This document shows positions 10,868-20,965 of a stretch of 52,376 nt of DNA, one piece after another; within the stretch, counting starts at the first letter, position 1; the number at the start of each line of letters is the position of its first letter. A program made the position numbers and the translations under genes. The stretch is from assembly GCA_019689585.1 (NCBI GenBank), contig JADGHG010000003.1, positions 1 through 52,376 on the forward strand, in the 5' to 3' direction. The DNA is from Clostridia bacterium (GTDB lineage: Bacteria > Bacillota > Sulfobacillia > RBS10-35 > JADGHG01). The notes under the pieces are model-generated. The model was given only the letters and a program-made list of their open reading frames with translations. It was not told where the DNA came from and ran no database searches.

Positions 10868-12004
10868 ATGCGACGCGCTTCGACCGAGCGGAGACGCGCG
10901 GCGGCGATAGTGACACTCGCCGTGGGCCTCATTCTCGTGGCCTGCGCCCCCGTGTCGCAGCCGGCGACCTCGCCGCTTGCGAAGAGCGAGTACACGCTGA
11001 CCCCCTCCGAAGGCGTCGCCTCGGAGGCCTCCCCGTTCACGCTGGGCACGCCGTTCAGCCCCAGTGAACCGGCGCATCCGGGACCTTTGCCCGGCGACCT
11101 CCTCATCGCGGACCGCTTCAACCGGCGCCTAGTCATCGTCTCGCCGGCGAAGAAGATCCTGTGGGACTACACCTTCCCCGCCTCCGTGGACGGCGGTGTC
11201 GGCAAGCGCGGCCCCGACGACGCCTTCCTCACGCCCGGCGACAAGACGATCATCACGAACGAGGAAGACAATCACACGATCGAGGAGGTCGACCTCGCCA
11301 CCAAGAAGATCGTGTGGTCCTACGGGCATCCCGGCGTACCCGGAAGCAAGCCGGGATTCCTCAACACGCCGGACGACGCCTATCGGCTGCCGAACGGCTG
11401 GACCACCGTGGCCGACATCGGCAACTGCCGGATCCTCACGATCGCCCCCGACGGAACCGTCGTGAAGCAGTACGGTCGGACGCTGGTCTGCCGCCACGGT
11501 CCGCCGCGGACCTACGCGAGCCCGAACGGCGACACGCCTCTTCCCGACGGCGGCATGCTGGTCACGGAGATCGGCGGCAGCCACGCGATCCGCCTCGACG
11601 CCCAAGGGCGCGTCGTCTGGGATCTCAAGCTACCCATCCGCTACCCCTCGGACGCGCAACTCCTCCCGGATGGGAACGTGCTCGTCGTCTCCTACACGAG
11701 CCCCGGCACAGTCCTCAAGATCTCGCCCGAGGGGAAGGTGCTCTGGAAGTACGGACCCACAAGCGGCGAGGGCCGCCTGGACAAGCCCTCCCTGGCCATC
11801 GAACTGCCCAACGGCAACATCGCGGTCAACGACGACGCCAATCACCGCGTGGTCGTGATCGACCCGAGGACGAACGACATCGTCTGGCAGTTCGGGGTCA
11901 CCGGCGTCCCGGGGGACGACGCGACGCACCTGAACACCCCCGACGGCATGGACTTCGTCCCGTTCGCCGTCGGCGACGCCCTCTACTTCGCGAGCCACCA
12001 CTGA
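10868..12004 (+). CDS. Beta-propeller repeat lipoprotein (NHL/PQQ-like)
   Basis: Lipobox LVAC; repeated P-x-D-A-x-x-L-P-(N/D)-G blades and IVWxYG motifs. Confidence 0.7.
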   Translation: MRRASTERRRAAAIVTLAVGLILVACAPVSQPATSPLAKSEYTLTPSEGVASEASPFTLGTPFSPSEPAHPGPLPGDLLIADRFNRRLVIVSPAKKILWDYTFPASVDGGVGKRGPDDAFLTPGDKTIITNEEDNHTIEEVDLATKKIVWSYGHPGVPGSKPGFLNTPDDAYRLPNGWTTVADIGNCRILTIAPDGTVVKQYGRTLVCRHGPPRTYASPNGDTPLPDGGMLVTEIGGSHAIRLDAQGRVVWDLKLPIRYPSDAQLLPDGNVLVVSYTSPGTVLKISPEGKVLWKYGPTSGEGRLDKPSLAIELPNGNIAVNDDANHRVVVIDPRTNDIVWQFGVTGVPGDDATHLNTPDGMDFVPFAVGDALYFASHH

Positions 12005-12117
12005 TCCCCGGTCGCAGGCGCCCCGTCCGGGCTCGGGCAGCCGGCGGCAGGATCTCGGCGGCCGCGCCCCGAACCGCCCCGGCGTGCATCTTTCGTGACC
12101 CGAAAGGAGTCTGTGCC

Positions 12118-13914
12118 ATGGCGGAGCGCCCGCGGCGATCGCAGGTCCCCGTGGAGGAGACCTGGAACCTGCACGACATCTACCCGAGCGACGAGGCCTG
12201 GGAGGCGGACCTCGCCCGAGTGCCCGAGGCGGCCGCGGCGGTCCGCGCGTACCAGGGCCACCTGCACGAGGGCGGCGCCACGCTCCTCGCCTGCCTTCGC
12301 GCGCGCGACGCCTTCCTCGAGCTGGCCGCGAAGGTGGGAGCATACGCGCGCCTTCACCAGTCGGCGGACGGGACCGACCCGAACAACCAGTCGATGAGCG
12401 AACGGGCGGGGTCGGCGCTCGCCCGGGCCGAGGCGGAGGTGGCCTTCCTCACACCCGAGCTCCTCGCGCTCCCCGAAGGCACGATCGAGCGCTACCTGCG
12501 AGAGGAGCCCGGCCTCTCCACCTACCGGCGCCAGCTCGAGCGCGTCGCGCGCCGGCGGCCGCACACGCTGGGCGCGGAGGCCGAGGAGGCGATCGCCTCG
12601 CTGGGCGAGGCGCTCGCCGCGCCGTCTGCGATCTACCAGCGCGCGACGTCGGCCGACCTGGACTTCCCAAGCGTCCGCGACGCGCGCGGCGAGGAGGTCG
12701 CCGTCTCGCTCGCGGGGGCCCAGCGGCTCCTCGCCTCGACCGATCGCGACCTCCGCCGCCGCGTGCACGAGGCTCTCGGCGCGGGGCTGCGCCGTCACCA
12801 CCACACGCTGGCCACGGCGCTCGCGTCGGTCGTGAAGCGCAACGTGACCATGGCGCGGCTTCGCCGCTTCGCCTCGGCCGAGCAGATGATCCTCCACGGC
12901 CAGGAGGTGCCGTACGAGGTCTACACGAACGTCCTCGACGTCATCCACGACGAGATCGCGCCTCACGTGCGGCGGCTGATGAGGCTCCGGAAGCGCGTCC
13001 TCGGGCTCGACGAGCTGCGCAGCTACGACCTCGCCGTGCCGCTCGACCCCGGGTTCGACCCGCAGTACACGTGGGAGGACGCGGAGCGCCTCATCCGCGA
13101 AGGCCTGGCGCCGCTCGGGGAGGAGTACGGCGAGATCCTGCGCAGGGCCTTCCACGAGCGCTGGGTCGACCGGGCGGACAACGTCGGCAAACCGCACGGC
13201 GCCTTCTGCAGCAGCGTCTACGGGGTGCACCCGTACATCCTCATGACCTGGACCGGGAGGCTGCGCAACGTCTTCACGCTCGCCCACGAGCTCGGCCACG
13301 CCGCGCACGGGATGCTCGCCGCCCGCAACCAGGTGGTGAGCAACGTCTGGACGACGCTCTTCTTCGTCGAGGCGCCGTCCACGTGCAACGAAGTGTTCCT
13401 GGGCACGCACCTCCTCGCGACCGCGCGCGATCCGCGCCTGCGGCGCCACGTGATCCAGCAGTTCATGGGGACGTTCCTCCACAACATGGTGACCCACCTC
13501 CTGCAGGGGCACCTCGAGCGGCGGCTCTACCGGCTCGCCGAGGCCGGAAGGCCGCTCACGCTGGCGACGATCACCGAGGCCCAGGCCGAGGTCTACGAGC
13601 GCTTCTACCAGGGCACGGTGGTCTTCGACGAGGTCGACCACCTCGACTGGATGACGGTGCCCCACTACTACCGCGGGCTCTACCCGTACACGTACGCGGC
13701 CGGGCTCACCTGCGGCGTCGCGGTCGCACGGGCGGCGCAGCGCGAGGGGCGGCCGGCCGTGGAGCGGTGGCTCGAGGCGCTCAAAGCCGGCGGGACGCTT
13801 CCGCCGCTCGAGCTCATGACGACGGCCGGCGTCGACATGACGACGCCGGCGCCCATGCGGGAGGCGGTCGCGTTCTTCGGGGAGCTCGTCGCGGAGCTCG
13901 AGAAGAGCTTCTGA
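12118..13914 (+). CDS. pepF: Oligoendopeptidase F (M3B)
   Basis: N-terminal RSQVPVEETWNL, zinc motif HELGH, EAPSTCNE, HYY near the C-terminus. Confidence 0.92.
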   Translation: MAERPRRSQVPVEETWNLHDIYPSDEAWEADLARVPEAAAAVRAYQGHLHEGGATLLACLRARDAFLELAAKVGAYARLHQSADGTDPNNQSMSERAGSALARAEAEVAFLTPELLALPEGTIERYLREEPGLSTYRRQLERVARRRPHTLGAEAEEAIASLGEALAAPSAIYQRATSADLDFPSVRDARGEEVAVSLAGAQRLLASTDRDLRRRVHEALGAGLRRHHHTLATALASVVKRNVTMARLRRFASAEQMILHGQEVPYEVYTNVLDVIHDEIAPHVRRLMRLRKRVLGLDELRSYDLAVPLDPGFDPQYTWEDAERLIREGLAPLGEEYGEILRRAFHERWVDRADNVGKPHGAFCSSVYGVHPYILMTWTGRLRNVFTLAHELGHAAHGMLAARNQVVSNVWTTLFFVEAPSTCNEVFLGTHLLATARDPRLRRHVIQQFMGTFLHNMVTHLLQGHLERRLYRLAEAGRPLTLATITEAQAEVYERFYQGTVVFDEVDHLDWMTVPHYYRGLYPYTYAAGLTCGVAVARAAQREGRPAVERWLEALKAGGTLPPLELMTTAGVDMTTPAPMREAVAFFGELVAELEKSF

Positions 13915-14112
13915 TGGGACTGCCGGATGTCCCGGCACGTCAAGCACGGCGGGTCAAACGCGCCCTTGGAGCGCTCCGGACCCTCCCTGCTATACGTTGC
14001 CTCACCTCTTTCGCGACCGTCGCGTGCGGCGTTGCGCATCCGTACAGCGCAGCCCCGAGTGCGCGGCCATCCGAGCGGCGGGCCGCCCACGTCGGGTTGC
14101 CAGAATGTCGTC

Positions 14113-14586
14113 CTACTGCGCGTACCACAAGTTCCATCGGTCACGTTCCTTCGTGACAAACATCTCCTCACCCATCAGGCTGTTGCTGGGGGCGGCGTTC
14201 GGATATTGCACGAACACGACCCACGTGCTGTGTGCGACGTCGGCTCCACACCATGTAACGACAAATTGCCCCCAAACGCCCGCCTCTCCGGCCTGCTCCA
14301 GCCGAACGACCTTGAACGTGTTAAACATCGATTCGGAGGAAACGAACTCCGATTCGAGCTCCCGGACAGCTGCAATCGCCTTCGGCAATTGTCGAGCAAT
14401 CTCGTCATGGTCCCTGCTTCCGGTCGTCGCAAGCCGATCCGCCCGGGGACACGCATCCCACGGCTCAATGCCTGGTGTATACGTGACAACGAGGGGAAGA
14501 TCGCCCTGCGAAACGAGGCCCTGGCAAGCGCCGAGGAGTCCGGCTGCACCTATGGCCGCCACGGCGGCCGCTACCCGCCACCGCAC
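14113..14586 (-). CDS. Hypothetical lipoprotein
   Basis: Lipobox LLGAC after a hydrophobic stretch; purine-rich RBS; last gene of the lower-GC operon. Confidence 0.65.
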   Translation of the reverse strand: MRWRVAAAVAAIGAAGLLGACQGLVSQGDLPLVVTYTPGIEPWDACPRADRLATTGSRDHDEIARQLPKAIAAVRELESEFVSSESMFNTFKVVRLEQAGEAGVWGQFVVTWCGADVAHSTWVVFVQYPNAAPSNSLMGEEMFVTKERDRWNLWYAQ

Positions 14587-14643
14587 CGGGTGTCATCCCC
14601 TTCCACCCACCACAACATGTACGTAGCCCTTCAGATATGAGGA

Positions 14644-15243
14644 CTAAAGATCTGGCGCATAGTCGACTATCTCACTCGAGAGAATTTCTTTCCACCGTGC
14701 TACTTCCTTCACACGTATCTCTGCCTGCCGAATCAGATCAGCTGTCACCTTCCTTCGCGCACGGTATTTCAGAATCCCGGGCCCAAGCGCAATCGCAGTA
14801 AGCCCAAGGGCGGCCGGGTGTGACAATGAGCCAGTAGGATGGAACGCTGTTCCAACCACTGCTGCTATGCTGCAAGCAAGTATAAAAAGGCTTCGCGCCA
14901 GTGTTCGTAAGGTAACGGTGTCATCGGCAGAACCACTGCAACCGCATGGTACAGGGGTCCCTCTTCTCAAGACCATCGACGTTGCCACAACGAAACAAAT
15001 TGCAAGGGCTATTCCGAGCATCGGGCCGACCACACTTGAGCCTGCGAAAAGAATGACGAGTCCTACCAACATCTCAAACCAAGGCAATGCGAGCCCGATT
15101 GGCCGCGTGAAGCTAGCCGGCAGGATTCCGTAAGCGGACACAACTGACCGAGACGACGGATAGTCCGCCAACTTCATCCCGGCCGAACACACAAACATCG
15201 TCCCCAGCCAAGCACGGATGATCGACAAGAGGTCAATATTCAC
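14644..15243 (-). CDS. MauE/DoxX family membrane protein
   Basis: R-x-x-LGTMF...K, LPWFEMLVG and the CGC motif (VPCGCSG) typical of MauE; 4-5 TMs; start approximate. Confidence 0.8.
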   Translation of the reverse strand: MNIDLLSIIRAWLGTMFVCSAGMKLADYPSSRSVVSAYGILPASFTRPIGLALPWFEMLVGLVILFAGSSVVGPMLGIALAICFVVATSMVLRRGTPVPCGCSGSADDTVTLRTLARSLFILACSIAAVVGTAFHPTGSLSHPAALGLTAIALGPGILKYRARRKVTADLIRQAEIRVKEVARWKEILSSEIVDYAPDL

Positions 15244-15253
15244 AACCAACGAC

Positions 15254-15868
15254 CTACCTCTTGACCCACAATTTCGTGACACGAAAGCCACCATCCGGTA
15301 ATCTCAGCCCGACTGTACCTACAGTCATGCCCGGAACAAGTGCTGTGCGCCCGCCCTGCAGAGGGATATCGCCTTCACCCACGACCTCGAGCACCGGAGA
15401 CAGCTCAACCTTAACCGGTCCTCGCCTCGTCATCAAGTTCAGGTGGTCGGAGCCGACATGCTCGATAACCCCGTCACGACGGCCGATGTTGACCCACACC
15501 CACTGACTCCGGGCGCGGAGGCTGCCGTCTGGTAACGGCGTTCCCCGCACGTCAAGCCAGTCACCGATTTGAACTACCTGGTGGTTTCGAAAGACCTCCT
15601 TCCACACCACGGTGTCGGGCTGAAATCGAACAGCTCGAACGCCTGCACCGGACTCGAGGATGACTCCGGTTTCCGTGCGGTCTACAACACGTCCTGACGC
15701 AAACCCCGGGTCTGGGCCCACAACCTGATCCACAGTGGGTCGAAGTGCAGTCCGTCGCGGTGGGTGGGTGCCGATCGCCTGTAAGACCCCTGGGTACAGA
15801 AAGTCGACTACAAGAACGAGGGCTCCCCCCAGGATCGTCAGAAACGAACGACGGCTGATAGGCTCCAT
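15254..15868 (-). CDS. Tat-signal protein with two beta-rich (OB-like/DUF5666-like) repeats
   Basis: SRRSFL twin-arginine motif followed by a hydrophobic core; repeats GRVV..VQIGDWLDVRGTPLPDG and GVIE..LVPGMTVGTVGLRLPDG. Confidence 0.7.
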   Translation of the reverse strand: MEPISRRSFLTILGGALVLVVDFLYPGVLQAIGTHPPRRTALRPTVDQVVGPDPGFASGRVVDRTETGVILESGAGVRAVRFQPDTVVWKEVFRNHQVVQIGDWLDVRGTPLPDGSLRARSQWVWVNIGRRDGVIEHVGSDHLNLMTRRGPVKVELSPVLEVVGEGDIPLQGGRTALVPGMTVGTVGLRLPDGGFRVTKLWVKR

Positions 15869-15900
15869 GCCAGCGCCTCCGTGTTGGCAACCGCTCCAGT

Positions 15901-16302
15901 CTAGCAGCACAGCTGTGTAGGCTTAGTCGCAGCGTTCATATTGGTTATTCGCCCTTGGTGCAGGGGAGCAAAGACGGTAAACATAGCCTTCGTGAAATCT
16001 ACCATCGCCGTGCTACTGGGGCCGGTGTCCACCCGCACGGCGGCGACCCAGTTCACACAATCGGTGGTGAACACCATTTGGTCTCCACAACTTGGACACA
16101 ACCCGCAGGATTTCGCCTGTCCGCACTCCCATGCGAACCCGCGGTTTCCGGAGTTGCATGTGCAGCACGCCCCGACTCCACATGCGTTCCCTTCGCCACA
16201 TGGCGTTGAGCAGTCACTCCCCTGGCAACAGCACGCGTCGCAGTCGCAAGTATCCGGGTAGCAGCAGAACCACGTTGCGTCGCCGCAGCACGGCTCGCTC
16301 AT
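15901..16302 (-). CDS. Cys-rich (22 of 133 aa) RlpA-like double-psi beta-barrel protein
   Basis: RBS GAGGAGG; GDATWF, CG, VRVDTGP and VDFTKAMFTVFAP..G resemble DPBB motifs; no signal peptide. Confidence 0.7.
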   Translation of the reverse strand: MSEPCCGDATWFCCYPDTCDCDACCCQGSDCSTPCGEGNACGVGACCTCNSGNRGFAWECGQAKSCGLCPSCGDQMVFTTDCVNWVAAVRVDTGPSSTAMVDFTKAMFTVFAPLHQGRITNMNAATKPTQLCC

Positions 16303-16346
16303 GTTTCCCCTCCTCGCCCGTTCCGTCCCGCATGATAGCCGCTACT

Positions 16347-16375
16347 ACCATACACTGCCGGGCCAAGAATTGCAA
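16347..16375 (-). promoter_or_regulatory. Sigma-A-type promoter of the Cys-rich operon
   Basis: TTGCAA-17 nt-TATGGT on the minus strand, 45 nt upstream of the ATG. Confidence 0.55.
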
Positions 16376-16675
16376 CCCGGATAGGAACAGGTGTCGTAAA
16401 CGGCAGCCAAGGCTCGCCACGCTACGGCGACATGCCGGAGCATCAGTGGACCTGAGAGCTCGCGTCCGGCGACCCGGTCGAGTACGCCGCCCGGAGCAGT
16501 TCGATGGCGGAGGGATGCGCCCCGCCAACCACAGGACGGGGCGAGCAGCTTGCCGACATGCCGGGGGCTTCGCCGCCCGTCGCGGTCATGCCCCCGTCTC
16601 CGAAAACCGGCTCGCCGGTGCCCAAGCGGCGAGCCCGGCCGGGCGACGATGATCCCGCTCCCGCATCGCAGTCCG

Positions 16676-18514
16676 TCAGCCGCCCGGGTGGCGGCCGGGG
16701 CGATCGTCCTCGCCGCCGCCAGCGCCTCGGGAACCCATGCCGCCACCGGGCGCCGGAGGAGCGAGCTCCCTCGCCGGTGCGGAGGGCTGCATCGCGGGCG
16801 TAGGCGACCGCATGACGGGCGCGGAAGGCCGCACGGCCGACGCCGCCTCCGCACCCGCGCGCCTGGGCTCGGTCTCCTGGTCAGTCTCGCGGTAGAACTC
16901 GTCACGCCGGAGCGGGACCTCCGGCAGGAGGAGGACGCCGAGGAGCGCGACGGCCGCGAAGGCGAGCGCGGTCCAGAAGATCCCGCTCATGGAGGCGGCG
17001 AGCGTCTCGCGCACCGCGTGGATGAAGCCTTGGTAGAGTGCTTCGCCGTGCGGCCCGAAGGCGGCGAACCGGGCGTGCACGGCCGCCTGCCCCTGGGCGC
17101 TCACGAGCCCCTGCGGGTCGCGGAAGGCCTGGGCCTGGGCGGGCGGCATCTTGGCGAGGAGCGCCTTCAGCTCCGCGGGGAGGTGGCGGGGCAGCTCAGC
17201 CGCGAAGCGGTTCGCGAGCACCGTCCCGAGGATCGGCGCCGCGACGGCGCCTCCCAGCGAGTTCGCCGCCTGCTGGGTCGCGTTGACCGTCCCGAGCATG
17301 CGGTAGGGGAACGCGTTCTGGATCACGGTGCCCATCACGGGCATGAGGCTCCCGATGCCGAGCCCGAGGACGACCATGTCGCGCACGACCGTGAGCTGCG
17401 CCGTCCTGGCGTCGAGCCGGGTGAGGAGGTAGGCTCCGGCGACGAGGAGACACCCGCCCGCGACCGTGAGCGCCTTGTAGCGGCCCGTGCGGGACATCAC
17501 CTGGCCGGCCACGATGCTGGCCGCGATGAAGGAGAGCATCATCGGCGTGAGGATGTAGCCGGCGCTCTCGGCCGAGATGCCGAGCGCCCCCTGCACGAAG
17601 AGCGGCAGGAAGAGCATGGCGCCGAACATCGTCATGGAGACGGCGAGGCTGATCACCATCACGGACGAGAAGATCGGGTTCGCGAAGATCCGCATGTCGA
17701 TGACGGGCTCCGGCGCGCGCCGCTCGTTCCACACGAAGAGCGCGAGCATGAGGGCGGAGCCGGAGAAGAGCCCGATCACGCGCCAGTCGCTCCACGCGTA
17801 GGTCGTCCCGCCCCAGGTGACGCCGAGGAGCATCGGCACGAGCGCGGCGACGAGGAGCAGGCTGCCGAGGAAGTCTACGTGGCGGCGCGTCTCGGTGCGG
17901 ACCGTGGGAAGCGCGTAGACGACCATGGCGAGCGCCAGGGCGGCAACGGGCATGTTGACGTAGAAGACCCACCGCCAGCCCAGGTGGTCCGTGATCCAGC
18001 CGCCCACCCCGGGCCCGATGATCGTGGCGAGCCCGAACACGCCCATCGTGAGCCCGATCCAGCGCCCGCGTTCGCGCGGGTTGAAGATGTCGCCGATCGT
18101 CGCGCGCGGCATGCTCATCATGGCGCCGCCGCCCACGCCCTGGACGAGGCGCGCGGCGACGAGCATCGCCATCGAGTGGGCGCGCCCGGCCAGCGCCGCG
18201 CCGAGGAGGAAGACGAGGAGGCCGAAGACGTAGAACGGCTTCCGCCCGTACATGTCGGACAGCTTGCCGTAGAGCGGGATCGTCACGGAAGAGGCGAGGA
18301 TGTAGGCCGTGAACGCCCAGGCGTAGAGGTTGAAGCCCTGGAGTGCGCTGATGATCGTCGGCATGGCGGTCGAGACGGTCGTCTGGTTGAGGGACGAGAA
18401 GAACATGCAGATCATGACCGCGGCCAGCGCCCACCAGCGGCGCTCGCCCGTGATCCGGTTCGTCGTCTGCACCTGCGACCGGCGGGGACCGCGGTTCGAG
18501 CCAGCGCGCGCCAT
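16676..18514 (-). CDS. DHA2 (EmrB/QacA) family MFS drug transporter
   Basis: GKLSDMYGRK motif A, WRWVFYVN, about 14 TMs; start approximate. Confidence 0.88.
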   Translation of the reverse strand: MARAGSNRGPRRSQVQTTNRITGERRWWALAAVMICMFFSSLNQTTVSTAMPTIISALQGFNLYAWAFTAYILASSVTIPLYGKLSDMYGRKPFYVFGLLVFLLGAALAGRAHSMAMLVAARLVQGVGGGAMMSMPRATIGDIFNPRERGRWIGLTMGVFGLATIIGPGVGGWITDHLGWRWVFYVNMPVAALALAMVVYALPTVRTETRRHVDFLGSLLLVAALVPMLLGVTWGGTTYAWSDWRVIGLFSGSALMLALFVWNERRAPEPVIDMRIFANPIFSSVMVISLAVSMTMFGAMLFLPLFVQGALGISAESAGYILTPMMLSFIAASIVAGQVMSRTGRYKALTVAGGCLLVAGAYLLTRLDARTAQLTVVRDMVVLGLGIGSLMPVMGTVIQNAFPYRMLGTVNATQQAANSLGGAVAAPILGTVLANRFAAELPRHLPAELKALLAKMPPAQAQAFRDPQGLVSAQGQAAVHARFAAFGPHGEALYQGFIHAVRETLAASMSGIFWTALAFAAVALLGVLLLPEVPLRRDEFYRETDQETEPRRAGAEAASAVRPSAPVMRSPTPAMQPSAPARELAPPAPGGGMGSRGAGGGEDDRPGRHPGG

Positions 18515-18638
18515 GCGACTGATTCTACGCGCGAAGGGCCCTCCGGGCAACGATCGCGTCAGCCCGCGCCGCGGCGGCGGCTGCGGCGCGGCCGGCGGGC
18601 GTCCCGGGCCTCGGCCGACGGCGCGCGGGGGCGAAGCG

Positions 18639-20771
18639 TCATTCGATCGCCACGGGCTCGAGCGCCTCGGCCGGCTCGAAGCCGAAGACGCGCGAGTAGA
18701 AGTAGAGCTCGGCCTCGAGCGCCCGCCGGATGTGCTCCGCCCGGCGGAACCCGTGACCCTCGCCCGGGAAGGCGAGGTAGGCCACGGGCACGCCCTTCGC
18801 CCGGAGCGCCGCGACCATCCGCTCCGCCTGGTCGGGCGGGACCACACGATCCTCCAGTCCCTGGAAGAAGATGACGGGGCAGCGGATGCGGTCGGCGAAG
18901 TGGATGGGCGAGCGCGCCAGGTAGAGATCGCGTCGCTCGGGGTAGGGCCCGATGAGACCGTCGAGGTAGCGGGACTCGAACTTGTGGGTGTCGCGCGCGA
19001 GGGCTTCGACGTCGCTCACGCCGAAGTGGCTCGCCCCCGCGTGGAAGACGTCGCGGAACGCGAGGGCGCAGAGCGTCGTGTAGCCTCCTGCGCTCCCGCC
19101 CCGGATGGCGAGGCGTTGAGCGTCGACCTCGCCGCGCCCGGCGAGGTGCAGGGCGGCGGCGCAGCAGTCGTCGACGTCGGCCACGCCCCAGCGGCCCTTG
19201 AGCGCATCGCGGTACGCCCGGCCGTAGCCTGTGCTTCCCCGGTAGTCGACGTCCACCACGGCGAAGCCGCGGCTCGTCCAGTACTGGATGCCGAGGTTGA
19301 ACGCGGTCGAGGTCGCGCCCGTCGGCCCGCCGTGGCTTACGACGAGAAGCGGCGGCCGCTCGCCGGCGGGAGGCGCGAAGTCGCGGTTCCGCGGCCGGTA
19401 GAAGAGGCCGTGGGCCGTCTCGCCCCCCGTCGTCGGGAAGGCGATCGGCTCCGGGACGGACACGTACCCGGGGCCGAGCTCCACCTCGAGCTCGCGCCGG
19501 AGCTCGCGGAACGCCGGCCGCCCACCCGCGAGGTCGAGCTCGACCACGGCCAGCGGGCGGTCCGGGGCCGAGCCGAGGAACCACACGCGGTCGCCCCGCA
19601 CCTGCACGGCGGCGATGGCCGTGTAGGGGAGCGCAAGGGGCGCGAGCGCCCAGCCGCCCGCGGCCGGCAGGCCGCCGGTCGCCCGCTCCGGGGCGAGGAT
19701 GGCGAGCCGGTCGACGCCGTCCTTGCGGTAGCAGGCGACGACGCTGCCGTCGGGCCGGAGGCCGTAGGTCGAGAGGCCGAACGCCCAGGCCGGCACGCCG
19801 AATTCGGCTTCCATCGGGAAGAGTGGCTCCACCGGACCCACCTGCGGCGCGCCGTCCGCGCCGCCCGCTGCGCTGCCCGCGACCGCCGCGCCCGGGAGCC
19901 GCACCCGGGCGCGGTAGTGGTTCCACCAGCCGGTCCGGTCGGAGACGAAGTGCAGGTGGCCGTCCTCCGACCACTCGGGCTGAAAGACCGACTCGCCGGG
20001 CCCCCCCGCGACGAGCGCCGCGGGTCCGAGACCGCCGTCCTCGGCGAAGGCCGCGACCCAGAGCTCCGTGCCGTCCCAGGGCATGCGCGGGTGGTCCCAG
20101 CTGAGCCAGGCAAGCAGCCGGCCGTCGGGCGAGATGCGCGGCGAGGAGAAGAAGTCGTGGCCCGAGACGAGGACGCGCTGGCCCGGCACGTCGTCGGGGG
20201 CCCCAAGGCCGTCGCCCGCGGCCGCCGAACCATCGCCTGGAAGCGCGATCGCCACGATCGCGTTCTCGCAGTCGCGGTCGGAGCGGCGGTGGTCCTCGCG
20301 CACGGCGAGGATCCGGCCGCGGCGCTCGTCCATGCGCATGTCGGCGTAGCGCAGGGGCAGCTCCGGCGTGATCGGCCGGGGTTCGGCAGGCGCGCCCTCG
20401 ACCGGCCGGCCGTGCGCCGGCACGCGGTAGAGCCTCTGGTCAGCGAAGTTGACGAAGTACGCGACGCCGCGGTGGACGAGGGCGGCGCCCCCGCCGTACT
20501 CGTGCACGCGCGTGCGGACGTTGAAGGGCCGGGGCGTCACATCGAGCGCCTCCGCCTCGCGCGACGGAGCCCCCTCGCCTCGCGGGGCCGCGCGCACGAG
20601 CACGCTCCGCCCCTCCTCCCACGGCCGCCCCTCGATCCAGTAGACGTCCTCCCCGTCGACGAGGAGCTCGGAGAGGCGACGCGCGCCCTTCGTGAGAAGC
20701 TCGGCCGTGACGGGCGAGACCCAGGAGCCGTAGGGCGCCGTCCGCAGCTCTGCCGTACCGCCTTCCGGCAA
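18639..20771 (-). CDS. S9 family serine peptidase (prolyl oligopeptidase/acyl-peptide hydrolase-like)
   Basis: APYGSWxSP N-terminus, HGGP, GGSAGG nucleophile, DRVV, EGHGF. Confidence 0.9.
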   Translation of the reverse strand: MPEGGTAELRTAPYGSWVSPVTAELLTKGARRLSELLVDGEDVYWIEGRPWEEGRSVLVRAAPRGEGAPSREAEALDVTPRPFNVRTRVHEYGGGAALVHRGVAYFVNFADQRLYRVPAHGRPVEGAPAEPRPITPELPLRYADMRMDERRGRILAVREDHRRSDRDCENAIVAIALPGDGSAAAGDGLGAPDDVPGQRVLVSGHDFFSSPRISPDGRLLAWLSWDHPRMPWDGTELWVAAFAEDGGLGPAALVAGGPGESVFQPEWSEDGHLHFVSDRTGWWNHYRARVRLPGAAVAGSAAGGADGAPQVGPVEPLFPMEAEFGVPAWAFGLSTYGLRPDGSVVACYRKDGVDRLAILAPERATGGLPAAGGWALAPLALPYTAIAAVQVRGDRVWFLGSAPDRPLAVVELDLAGGRPAFRELRRELEVELGPGYVSVPEPIAFPTTGGETAHGLFYRPRNRDFAPPAGERPPLLVVSHGGPTGATSTAFNLGIQYWTSRGFAVVDVDYRGSTGYGRAYRDALKGRWGVADVDDCCAAALHLAGRGEVDAQRLAIRGGSAGGYTTLCALAFRDVFHAGASHFGVSDVEALARDTHKFESRYLDGLIGPYPERRDLYLARSPIHFADRIRCPVIFFQGLEDRVVPPDQAERMVAALRAKGVPVAYLAFPGEGHGFRRAEHIRRALEAELYFYSRVFGFEPAEALEPVAIE

Positions 20772-20965
20772 GGTCGGTCCCTTCTCCGCACGTGACGATT
20801 GCGCGCGCGGGTCGCCGCATCCTGCCCCGGGCCGCCGTCTTGGTCCACCGCGCGTCACGAGGCGCGGCGCCTCCGGCCGGAGGGCGCGCCGCTGCCGAGC
20901 CCCTTGCGCCTCACCGCCCCGGGCGCGGATACTGGCTCGGTGAACCTCGGGCGGGGGGCCGCACC

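Follow-up and report, generated by a model that had tools for sequence, protein, structure and literature searches.

Cys-rich double-psi β-barrel proteins encoded with a Tat-signal protein and a MauE-family membrane protein: a candidate rare three-gene module

The tyrosinase pair MelC1/MelC2 of Streptomyces is an example of proteins that use twin-arginine translocation (Tat) as a hitchhiker pair. In other such pairs, among them E. coli PaoABC and the small and large subunits of hydrogenase, a partner without a signal is described as being exported while bound to a partner with a twin-arginine signal (PMC4273604; PMC10924467). According to the accounts in PMC6708511 and PMC5936819, the typical cargo of Tat consists of proteins whose folding or cofactor uptake takes place in the cytoplasm. 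The known hitchhiking passengers are cofactor-bearing redox enzymes.

MauA, methylamine dehydrogenase's small subunit, is a protein of about 130 amino acids with a twin-arginine leader. It has six disulfide bonds and its maturation needs the membrane protein MauE, which has recently been proposed to be a general disulfide-forming enzyme: as described in the preprint, MauE proteins can replace DsbB of E. coli through a CXC site, which is the active site and is followed by a highly conserved Phe-Gly, and a conserved Lys and a conserved Glu lie in the first two transmembrane helices (bioRxiv 10.64898/2026.03.05.709764). So far, the methylamine dehydrogenase small subunit is the one specific client of MauE.

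The double-psi β-barrel (DPBB) is a fold of proteins with various functions. Members of the RlpA family are marked by a G-x-A-S/T-W-aromatic strand and two Asp motifs. Expansin domain 1, fungal loosenins, kiwellin, barwin and cerato-platanin are Cys-stabilised, secreted and mostly non-hydrolytic DPBB proteins, mostly of eukaryotes, which bind polysaccharides, loosen them or bind to other proteins; they are secreted by signals of their own and are much poorer in Cys than the protein described here, and we know of none that needs a carrier protein. The Streptomyces papain inhibitor SPI (PDB 5ntb), a single-domain DPBB protein, is also secreted by its own signal and has few disulfides, and to our knowledge it is not associated with a Tat carrier or with MauE. 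SPI and loosenin are non-enzymatic, like expansins.

Here, we describe a small Cys-rich gene and its neighbours in a window of 52,376 nucleotides, the whole stretch of DNA that was analysed (contig JADGHG010000003.1), in whose positions all coordinates are given. An earlier note on this DNA had pointed, without naming a strand, to a metallothionein-looking protein at 15901..16302. This is a real open reading frame and not due to chance: on the minus strand it encodes 133 amino acids and the stop codon, and a ribosome-binding site, GAGGAGG (16309..16315, minus strand), lies 6 nt 5′ of its ATG at 16302. The product (P0001) contains 22 Cys by script count, 16.5% of its residues, arranged as had been noted in CC (residues 5–6, 13–14, 46–47 and the C-terminus), CCC (24–26) and CxC (19–21 and 47–49) clusters, and the strings GDATWF, VRVDTGP and VDFTKAMFTVFAPLHQG that had been quoted all occur in the translation. 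Since M1 is the first start codon past an upstream stop in this reading frame, an N-terminal extension is impossible. Its sequence and a Pfam scan revealed no hydrophobic N-terminus, lipobox, Sec signal, SPOR domain or other Pfam domain. Pfam assigned it to no family, with only DUF3540 at E 0.3, scans of NCBIfam and PADLOC gave nothing useful, and no metallothionein family model matched it in Pfam or NCBIfam at E≤1.

Four parts of P0001 can be distinguished, all encoded on the minus strand. The first barrel strand (E5–11 in the structural model) includes G7–F12 (GDATWF; 16267..16284), for which the family consensus in alignment A1 is G-x-A-S/T-W-F. Between barrel strands 1 and 2, as placed by the same alignment and the AlphaFold model, lies a Cys-dense insert of residues 13–49 (16156..16266), which holds 14 of the Cys. 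Further on, R90–P95 (RVDTGP; 16018..16035), with invariant D92 and P95, lines up with R-DKCP in SPI and with ADECP in a loosenin, and V101–K105 (VDFTK; 15988..16002), with invariant D102, does so with IDLS in SPI and with IDMT in a loosenin. D102 would be the equivalent of the catalytic Asp of RlpA.

A database search yielded 25 homologues of P0001 with 40–65% identity, and among 1.84 billion representatives 27 clusters match the family at E≤1e-3. All 26 rows of alignment A1 share G7, C13, C14, C19, C21, D22, C26, A57, W58, C72, D92, P95, D102 and F108. The proteins of this family start with M-[AS]-C-C about five residues ahead of strand 1, and a signal peptide was found in no member, either in alignment A1 or in the longer database entries inspected. 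The N-terminal extensions of six entries (P0009, P0032, P0035, P0036, P0047 and P0049) were considered and are most simply over-extended gene calls: the usual start, M-[AS/T]-C-C, MASC or MATY, lies inside five of the six, and a signal-like stretch in none; P0047 was trimmed at LATCK, where there is no Met. A C-terminal extension of 180 amino acids in P0034 has no Pfam match. The family was found in none of 40 other genomes of the same order or class as the source genome. DNA of the locus occurs in the wood-decay metagenome runs X1–X4, which possibly represent the source sample and hence are not independent evidence. Among the sequencing runs listed as containing positions 14100–16400, none is an RNA run.

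The AlphaFold model of P0001 has a mean pLDDT of 70, with 77–90 in the barrel strands and less than 50 at residues 16–49, most of the Cys-dense insert. The earlier note had proposed a hidden RlpA/barwin-like DPBB and an HHpred or Foldseek search to check it. Foldseek, run against the PDB, returned DPBB proteins for all of the top matches: SPI 5ntb (E 3.9e-5), kiwellin, loosenin 9ce9, expansins, PA4485 and sugarwin. VIA-align against 48,161 chains gave the RlpA-like protein PA4485 (PDB 4avr) a Z of 9.8 (rmsd 2.3, 84 residues aligned), GhEXLA1 8.4 and SPI 8.2, kiwellin and the expansins lying at 7.5–8.4. A profile of the family built from alignment A1 found SPI (E 7.4e-4) and loosenin 9ce9, an RlpA-like DPBB domain protein (E 0.011), among PDB sequences, and in both of these D92 and D102 align with Asp residues. 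Look-alikes in the ESM Atlas are all DPBB-type clusters (scores 0.88–0.91), which is a lead only. The proposed fold is thus supported by Foldseek, VIA-align and the profile search, and so is the claim that both Asp positions are kept, as they are invariant in 26 of 26 rows and aligned with those of two solved DPBB proteins. What did not stand is membership of the RlpA group itself. The Pfam model DPBB_1 (PF03330; gathering score 28.8 bits) does not match P0001 at E≤1, and a six-frame search of the genome, which is 95% complete, gave no match to it at E≤0.01. P0001, which lacks signal peptide, lipobox and SPOR, is therefore not an RlpA.

How does P0001 compare with its nearest relatives? Like SPI, it is a single-domain DPBB protein of similar size, and the two have in common the AAW strand, a D-x-x-P motif and the tail I/V-D-L/F-S/T-x-A-x-F…APL…G-V; however, neither the Cys-dense insert of 37 residues nor the terminal CC pairs are present in SPI, and the identity is 16–19%. 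With the RlpA-like proteins (P. aeruginosa RlpA and PA4485) it shares the fold, a first strand of the form G-x-A-S/T-W-aromatic and two Asp motifs that are conserved, but unlike them it has no PF03330 match, no lipoprotein signal and no SPOR domain, and its Cys content is 16.5%. The best reading is that P0001 is the founding member, as seen here, of a rare, unnamed DPBB family, related in fold and faintly in sequence to SPI, loosenins, expansin domain 1 and RlpA-like proteins, in which a decoration of 16–26 Cys is grafted onto the barrel, mainly as the insert between strands 1 and 2 and in addition at both termini. A RiPP precursor was considered and rejected: none of the loci contains a modifying enzyme, P0001 forms a folded domain, and the genes on either side vary from locus to locus.

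Downstream of the Cys-rich gene, after a gap of 32 nt, a second gene on the minus strand (15254..15868) encodes a Cys-free tandem β-barrel protein of 204 amino acids with a Tat signal (P0052, DUF5666-like), the predicted carrier and partner of P0001. Its ribosome-binding site, GGAGG, is at 15876–15880, 7 nt before its ATG. The twin-arginine motif SRRSFL (S5–L10; 15839..15856, minus strand) is followed by a short hydrophobic stretch, and just past this lies a conserved motif, FLYPG (F23–G27; 15788..15802, minus strand). Among 46 carrier homologues, RR occupies the twin-arginine position in 31, RK in eight, RG in three and RS in two, with none of these in the remaining two, so the second Arg is not universal; the loose pattern [FLAM][LFM][YF]PG is found in all 46 rows, with P26 and G27 invariant. 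One homologue has been named 'twin-arginine translocation signal domain-containing protein' by NCBI, but none of the NCBIfam models, a Tat-signal one included, matched the carrier ORF when it was scanned in a 218-aa version. Cys is absent from 42 of the 46 homologues. The mature carrier is modelled at pLDDT >90 as tandem OB/cold-shock-like barrels, and the search for its family gave 73 clusters as compared with 25 for the Cys-rich family. A TatC gene is present in the source genome (E 7.4e-54).

The third gene, also on the minus strand (14644..15294), encodes a MauE-family membrane protein, 216 amino acids long if its ATG at 15294 is the start. Translation may instead begin with a TTG or GTG at around 15249 or 15243, just past the carrier stop, because the homologues lack the first ~17 residues. 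The protein scores 79.4 bits against PF07291 (cut-off 27), and 81.9 bits in the six-frame search. Its CXC motif, C117-G-C119 (14938..14946, minus strand), is invariant in the eight cassette MauE proteins compared (alignment A3), as are K41 and E74, which may correspond to the Lys and Glu of the preprint. The Phe-Gly reported to follow the CXC site is absent from all eight, which have S, T or A and then G or S. Elsewhere in the genome, a second MauE has the canonical CGCFGG and adjoins a thioredoxin-like protein with WCPYC, which makes the copy in the cassette an additional one; the cassette itself contains no thioredoxin-like (MauD/DsbA) intermediary.

This arrangement recurs. The order Cys-rich gene, Tat protein, MauE was found in eight of eight genome loci, and among 11 metagenome loci the Tat protein comes next in all nine with room for it and MauE in all eight with room. 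Altogether, every one of the 17 loci with room for a second gene has the same order, in Chloroflexota, one Gaiellaceae genome and the source genome, near-duplicates being included in these counts (L017 of L007, L023 of L004 and L018 of L019). In the window, the cassette lies in an islet of low GC content (14000..16400; 53–63% against 69–78% in the flanks) between genes for an M3 oligopeptidase and an MFS transporter. The same islet holds a 157-aa ORF with a lipoprotein-like N-terminus (…AGLLGAC…; 14113..14586, minus strand), which is missing from all 19 related loci and probably stands outside the three-gene module. A scan of 13800–16900 for promoters and terminators gave no promoter-like site and one terminator-like site, inside the carrier gene, which is not above the level in shuffled sequences. 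Around the islet there are only short repeats at chance level, the single tRNA gene is 28 kb away, and no mobile-element boundary was found.

Structure prediction for the Cys-rich protein together with the Tat protein gave ipSAE values of 0.94, 0.93 and 0.93 in three runs, while the best of three controls reached 0.01. At least 93% of the contacts are common to the runs, and the pLDDT of the partner is at least 84. Of 80 solved complexes, 58 come up to the ipSAE mark used, as do two of 110 mismatched pairs, counts that are only a rough guide for self-made alignments. The predicted interface joins invariant residues of the carrier (D53, W89, I128, R130 and W201) to conserved parts of the barrel protein (WFCCYPD and APLxQG). 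The predicted contacts at residues 96–99 and 105–118 of P0001 flank both Asp, and the carrier may cover the barrel groove around them. Binding of the barrel protein to the carrier is supported in this way as a prediction.

The explanation that we favour, at slightly better than an even chance, is that the three genes form a rare, undescribed module in which a Tat carrier serves to export a signal-less, hyper-disulfide DPBB protein and a dedicated MauE oxidises it. An outline of the process would be as follows: the barrel protein is made from the same operon as the carrier and the MauE-type membrane thiol oxidase. In the cytoplasm, the reduced barrel protein would dock on the carrier through the large conserved interface, and the pair would then cross the membrane by way of the Tat translocase on the signal of the carrier, that is, by hitchhiking. 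Outside, the dedicated MauE, with its CGC site and presumably linked to quinone, would form up to 11 disulfides, so that the product would be a very rigid extracellular protein or heterodimer. The cassette resembles the known Tat hitchhikers in having a protein with a Tat signal, a signal-less neighbour and a high-confidence predicted complex between them. It differs from them in that the candidate passenger is a small Cys-rich DPBB protein without a known cofactor and the candidate carrier is a tandem OB-like barrel protein. As for the third gene, MauA is the closest known parallel to a MauE that serves a single protein with many disulfides; however, no relation in sequence or fold is seen between MauA and P0001, and the cassette, unlike the mau system, has no MauD, MauG or MauB, carries the signal on the partner protein and has CGC-S/T instead of CGC-F.

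What is the state of the Cys residues? The number of Cys, which ranges from 16 to 26, is even in 38 of 42 full-length members and odd in four. A tree built with Cys masked, although poorly resolved (good support for 5 of its 39 inner branches), implies at least 24 changes in the count and only four in parity. Cys columns are gained or lost jointly: C13 and C21 are both present in 38 members and both absent in four, with none mixed, and for C31 with C47 the counts are 38/1/0/3. C24 and C41 co-vary as well. An apparent covariation between the N-terminal and C-terminal CC pairs (30/0/4/5; Fisher p 2e-4, Spearman 0.74) was set aside, as it amounts to one independent event on the tree. That counts stay mostly even through at least 24 changes favours disulfides over metal clusters. 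Of the two options raised in the earlier note, up to 11 disulfides or a metal-cluster insert, the former is therefore to be preferred, on the parity of the Cys and the neighbouring MauE.

The metal option has several points on its side, and it is the strongest of the competing explanations that we consider, if an unlikely one. The Cys insert would be a metallothionein-like or cluster module filled in the cytoplasm, the protein either staying there as a store or buffer or being exported folded. The CC, CCC and CxC spacing resembles that of metallothioneins, P0001 has no signal peptide, and the failure of AlphaFold to place residues 16–49 is as expected for folding that depends on metal. Export of a protein folded around metal would also explain the use of Tat, given the substrates that it is described as typically carrying (PMC6708511; PMC5936819). 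If disulfides alone were needed, a Sec signal would be simpler, so the choice of Tat hints at a step in the cytoplasm that involves a cofactor or a metal. Tat as a rule takes proteins that are already folded, and one that requires 11 disulfides might not fold in the cytoplasm, which counts against the Tat export model. However, the parity of the Cys and the paired gain and loss of Cys columns speak against metal, a disulfide-forming MauE is present in every cassette, no metallothionein model matches in Pfam or NCBIfam, and the Tat signal of the partner argues against a purely cytoplasmic role.

If the barrel protein is exported and cross-linked by disulfides as we favour, its final job is most likely, by analogy with expansin, loosenin and RlpA-like proteins, to bind or loosen a polysaccharide wall; inhibition of a protease, as by SPI, would be less likely. 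In a more specific scheme, which we put forward as tentative, the cassette would be a self-contained 'export and harden' module that is horizontally portable, in which the OB-barrel carrier takes the reduced barrel through Tat and the MauE variant (CGC-S/T) oxidises it directly without a thioredoxin-like intermediary. Bolder and less likely is a permanent extracellular two-protein enzyme with a Cys- or Trp-derived cross-link in its small subunit, analogous to methylamine dehydrogenase's small subunit.

The conserved Asp residues raise the possibility, already suggested in the earlier note, that the barrel cleaves glycans. In this explanation, P0001 would be an RlpA-like lytic transglycosylase cutting the glycan strands of peptidoglycan with D102 of VDFT as the acid, the Cys serving as staples only. 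D92 and D102 are invariant and, in alignments with solved DPBB proteins, fall on their D-x-x-P and I-D-L/M-S/T motifs, P. aeruginosa RlpA is reported to need its catalytic Asp D168 where the inactive RlpA of E. coli has Ser (PMC9712689), and the best structural match, PA4485, is an RlpA-like barrel. The same Asp residues are, however, kept in SPI, which its PDB entry names a papain inhibitor, and in a loosenin; neither is listed as an enzyme. Because non-enzymatic DPBB proteins retain these residues, glycan cleavage does not follow from them. With no match to DPBB_1 and no lipobox, Sec signal or SPOR in P0001, and with a predicted carrier interface on both sides of the two Asp that may cover the groove, we regard a transglycosylase as improbable.

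We give a similarly low probability to a secreted protease inhibitor of the SPI or fungal RsRlpA kind, in which architecture and export would be as in the explanation that we favour and the target would be a protease. Extreme cross-linking by disulfides is common in inhibitors, and SPI is both the closest solved relative by sequence and the top Foldseek match. A fungal RlpA-like DPBB effector has also been reported as a protease inhibitor (PMC7662947). Against this stand the low identity to SPI and the lack of any SPI counterpart of the Cys-rich insert and the carrier. That the three genes are mere neighbours, the Tat protein and MauE serving another function and the Cys-rich protein being an unrelated small cytoplasmic protein, is very improbable: adjacency alone often fails interaction tests and the carrier clusters outnumber the Cys-rich ones, an imbalance that may reflect missed short genes, but the order is the same in all loci with room, the gap between the first two genes is short, several database entries of the carrier and Cys-rich families come from contigs of identical length, and the predicted binding stands at 0.93 against 0.01 in controls.

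Among the matches listed in a literature search, none joined MauE or DUF5666 to DPBB, double-psi or RlpA-like proteins, and the DUF5666 literature, judged by title, is unrelated to the cassette. The cassette of Tat carrier and MauE, which was absent from the earlier note, is the more informative part of the finding; if the link to the carrier and the oxidase fails, the finding reduces to an ordinary one, a Cys-rich subfamily, new and rare, within a fold that is well known. For MauE, the cassette offers a second candidate client, one that is genetically linked and could contain up to 11–13 disulfides, beside a MauE with a distinct active-site neighbourhood and no DsbA-like partner, and three small genes would suffice to ask whether MauE can oxidise a substrate directly. 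A DPBB scaffold of 133 residues that would carry 11 disulfides and is akin to expansins and loosenins may also be of interest for very stable carbohydrate-active or inhibitor proteins. If the 'export and harden' scheme is true, the cassette would provide the first dedicated pair of MauE and client outside methylamine dehydrogenase and the first Tat hitchhiker with a cofactor-less, disulfide-knotted passenger. Under the explanation that we favour, hitchhiking would no longer be confined to cofactor-bearing redox enzymes but would serve a structural or binding protein as well.

The ORF at 15901..16302 (minus strand) encodes 133 residues followed by a TAG stop codon; 6 nt 5′ of its ATG is a ribosome-binding site, GAGGAGG. 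This ATG is the earliest start codon following the upstream stop, and therefore a hidden N-terminal signal is impossible for the product. A scripted count bears out the 22 cysteines that an earlier note on this DNA had ascribed to it, and the motifs quoted there (CC, CCC, CxC, a terminal CC, GDATWF, VRVDTGP and VDFTKAMFTVFAP..G) are all found in the translation. Scans against Pfam, NCBIfam and PADLOC gave no assignment. Word-indexed searching across 5.8 billion proteins returned 25 homologues with 40-65% identity, none carrying a functional name or a Pfam domain, and when 1.84 billion cluster representatives were searched exhaustively with HMMER, only 27 matched the family at E ≤ 1e-3; its sole label in any database source is "hypothetical protein". 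Invariant in the family alignment (26 rows) are G7, C13, C14, C19, C21, D22, C26, A57, W58, C72, D92, P95, D102 and F108. Judged from sequence, the gene is real and conserved. The only fused form of the protein seen is the homologue P0034 (314 aa), where the barrel is followed by two ~85-aa repeat copies (…PNPVPAG.GYG.TTI…VWVS…TY.F.LY.GTTH…), which Pfam does not recognise. The first strand is missing from P0034, whose N-terminus is perhaps wrongly called.

What fold does such a cysteine-laden protein adopt? The earlier note had proposed a double-psi beta-barrel (DPBB), and this proves right, as Foldseek, structure alignment and a sequence profile all point to DPBB proteins. An AlphaFold2 model built on the family alignment has a mean pLDDT of 70, with strands at 77-90 and residues 16-49 poorly defined. 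In a Foldseek search of the PDB, the top matches are DPBB proteins only: the Streptomyces papain inhibitor SPI (PDB 5ntb; E 3.9e-5), kiwellin, a fungal loosenin, bacterial and plant expansins, PA4485, sugarwin and cerato-platanins. Independently, all-against-representatives structure alignment gave PA4485 (Z 9.8, rmsd 2.3, 84 residues aligned), cotton expansin (Z 8.4) and SPI (Z 8.2), and the remaining upper matches are DPBB domains too; as Z of 7-8 is common in such alignments, the uniformity of the list weighs more than single values. The family profile, run against 177,635 PDB sequences, matched SPI (E 7.4e-4) and loosenin (PDB 9ce9; E 0.011) on sequence alone; the Asp of the D-x-x-P motif and that of the I-D-L/M-S/T motif in these two proteins align with D92 and D102. 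Look-alikes in the ESM Atlas, taken as a lead only, fall in RlpA-like, KWL1, barwin and cerato-platanin clusters (0.88-0.91). Pfam DPBB_1 matches neither this protein nor, in six-frame translation, any part of the genome. We class the Cys-rich family as a new family of the DPBB fold, not as a member of DPBB_1.

The gene does not stand alone. It is the first of a string of minus-strand genes, and the start of the second, at 15254..15868 (minus strand, 204 aa), lies 32 nt past its stop behind a GGAGG. The third, at 14644..15294 (minus strand), encodes a membrane protein of the MauE family (PF07291, 79.4 bits). With the ATG at 15294 as its start, the MauE ORF would share 41 nt with the second gene and include ~17 residues that homologues lack; translation therefore more probably begins just past the preceding stop codon, at a TTG or GTG (~15249 or 15243) that has an AGAGG in front of it. 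When one genome each from 185,579 species was scanned with the pattern CCYPDxC[GDN]C, which bounds the result, eight loci emerged (seven from MAGs of Chloroflexota, one from a MAG of Gaiellaceae), and in all eight the Cys-rich gene is followed by the second gene and then directly by MauE, with order and strand unchanged. Metagenomes yielded 11 further loci. Two of them end within the Cys-rich gene and one within the second gene; where the contig leaves room, the second gene is present in 9/9 and MauE in 8/8. The independent cases number fewer than 19, since some loci are near-duplicates of genome loci or of one another (L017/L007, L023/L004, L018/L019). Genes outside the cassette vary between loci. 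The most distant cassette, in a Dehalococcoidia MAG (L010, 6001-7420), has a Cys-rich protein of 32% identity; there two frames or ORFs share the match to the second gene between them, possibly through a frameshift or an assembly error.

The cassette lies in a 2.4-kb islet (14000-16400) whose GC content is 53-63%, whereas both flanks have 69-78%. On one side is an M3 oligopeptidase gene (PepF-like; 11161-13914, plus strand), on the other an MFS transporter gene (16676-18847, minus strand), beyond which follows an S9 prolyl-oligopeptidase-family gene (18639-20858, minus strand). Many long overlapping ORFs in the GC-rich flanks are spurious. The only other content of the islet is an unrelated ORF at 14113..14586 (minus strand, 157 aa) whose product starts like a lipoprotein (…AGLLGAC…) and weakly matches DUF7539 (E 0.012); it has a counterpart in none of the related loci. 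All 40 other genomes searched from this order or class lack the Cys-rich family. The drop in GC, this absence from relatives and the mostly Chloroflexota distribution elsewhere suggest horizontal acquisition; a search of the flanks found no tRNA, integrase, clear repeats or integration scars.

The product of the second gene, here called the carrier, begins with MEPISRRSFLT and a short hydrophobic stretch, by its sequence a twin-arginine signal. In an alignment of 46 homologues the motif reads RR in 31, RK in eight, RG in three, RS in two and absent in two, and NCBI names one homologue a twin-arginine translocation signal domain-containing protein. The carrier matches DUF5666 weakly, and many homologues have that domain; 42/46 contain no cysteine at all. 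Signal peptides are usually variable right after the hydrophobic core. In all 46 carriers a FLYPG-like motif (residues 23-27; 15788-15802) directly follows the core; it lies outside the predicted interface with the Cys-rich protein, and candidate roles are cleavage site context, MauE docking or a membrane anchor. The mature carrier is modelled (pLDDT >90) as two small beta-barrels resembling tandem cold-shock/S1/OB domains. When carrier residues 20-204 were predicted together with the Cys-rich protein from the two family alignments, three runs gave ipSAE 0.94, 0.93 and 0.93 with 134-159 contacts, at least 93% of them shared, and a partner pLDDT of 84 or more, whereas none of the three controls exceeded 0.01. 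In calibration, 58/80 solved complexes reached the mark, as did 2/110 mismatched pairs; with custom alignments these figures are approximate here. We know of no similar complex, and therefore the score is unlikely to reproduce an existing structure. The prediction supports, rather than proves, binding of the Cys-rich protein by the carrier. The predicted interface involves invariant D53, W89, I128, R130 and W201 of the carrier and the conserved WFCCYPD and APLxQG segments of its partner, for whose conservation carrier binding offers a possible explanation.

In the proposed mechanism, the carrier would bind the Cys-rich protein in the cytoplasm, the bound protein would cross Tat on the carrier's signal like a hitchhiker, and the cassette MauE would oxidise it outside. 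A weak point is that Tat prefers folded cargo. The genome encodes TatC, and hitchhiker pairs exported via a partner's Tat signal are known (PMC4273604, PMC10924467). According to a 2026 preprint (bioRxiv 10.64898/2026.03.05.709764), DsbB of E. coli can be replaced by MauE proteins from two phyla; the loop joining helices 3 and 4 holds an essential CXC motif, usually followed by Phe-Gly, Lys and Glu are conserved in the first two helices, and the six disulfides of methylamine dehydrogenase need MauE and the thioredoxin-like MauD. C-G-C, K41 and E74 are retained in the MauE of all eight cassettes, with S, T or A where Phe is usual in the preprint. Unlike the methylamine dehydrogenase system with its MauD, the cassette has no thioredoxin-like intermediary, a weak point for the oxidation step. 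On another contig (C66), a second MauE (canonical CGCFGG) overlaps the gene of a membrane-anchored thioredoxin-like protein (WCPYC) by 4 nt (locus L012, 1399-1920 and 1917-2621, minus strand); the two probably serve this genome as its housekeeping pair for disulfide formation, and the cassette MauE therefore looks like an extra, specialised copy.

Are the cysteines oxidised in pairs, or do they hold metal? That the proposed route is Tat, and not simply Sec, is a further weak point of the mechanism and might hint at loading of a metal or cofactor in the cytoplasm; a metal-loaded variant is therefore retained as a rival, though we consider it unlikely. Against it stand the cysteine counts, which lie between 16 and 26 and are even in 38/42 full-length members (seven fragments or truncated forms left out, five over-extended gene calls trimmed; naive binomial p 3e-8, ignoring relatedness). 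On a Cys-masked tree, weakly resolved with 5/39 inner branches well supported, the count changes at least 24 times and parity only four, each at a single tip. Columns co-vary as well: C13 and C21 are both present in 38 members, both absent in four and mixed in none (the four losses are close on the tree, perhaps one or two events), and the counts are 38/1/0/3 for C31 with C47 and 29/0/6/7 for C24 with C41. An N-terminal/C-terminal association, strong in raw counts, came down to one independent event on the tree and was dropped. Since parity is stable while counts change and columns are gained or lost together, the family fits cysteines working in pairs.

The DPBB fold, Tat hitchhiking and MauE are each already known; their combination was not found described. 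Among the papers listed by a literature search, with supplementary files outside it, none joins MauE with DPBB, RlpA-like or DUF5666 terms, and the DUF5666 papers found were, by title, unrelated. The end function is the least certain part of the proposal. Within the proposed architecture, true lytic transglycosylase activity is improbable: both signature Asp residues, which the earlier note had seen to be retained here, are invariant (D92, D102), but they are also kept in SPI and loosenin, and proteins of that type act without hydrolysis. Pseudomonas aeruginosa RlpA, for its part, is reported to rely on a single Asp (D168), which is Ser in the inactive E. coli RlpA (PMC9712689). Protease inhibition, reported for a fungal RlpA-like protein (PMC7662947) and the activity under which SPI is entered in the PDB, has a similarly small chance. 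By analogy with its structural relatives, the Cys-rich protein would most likely serve in polysaccharide binding or loosening.
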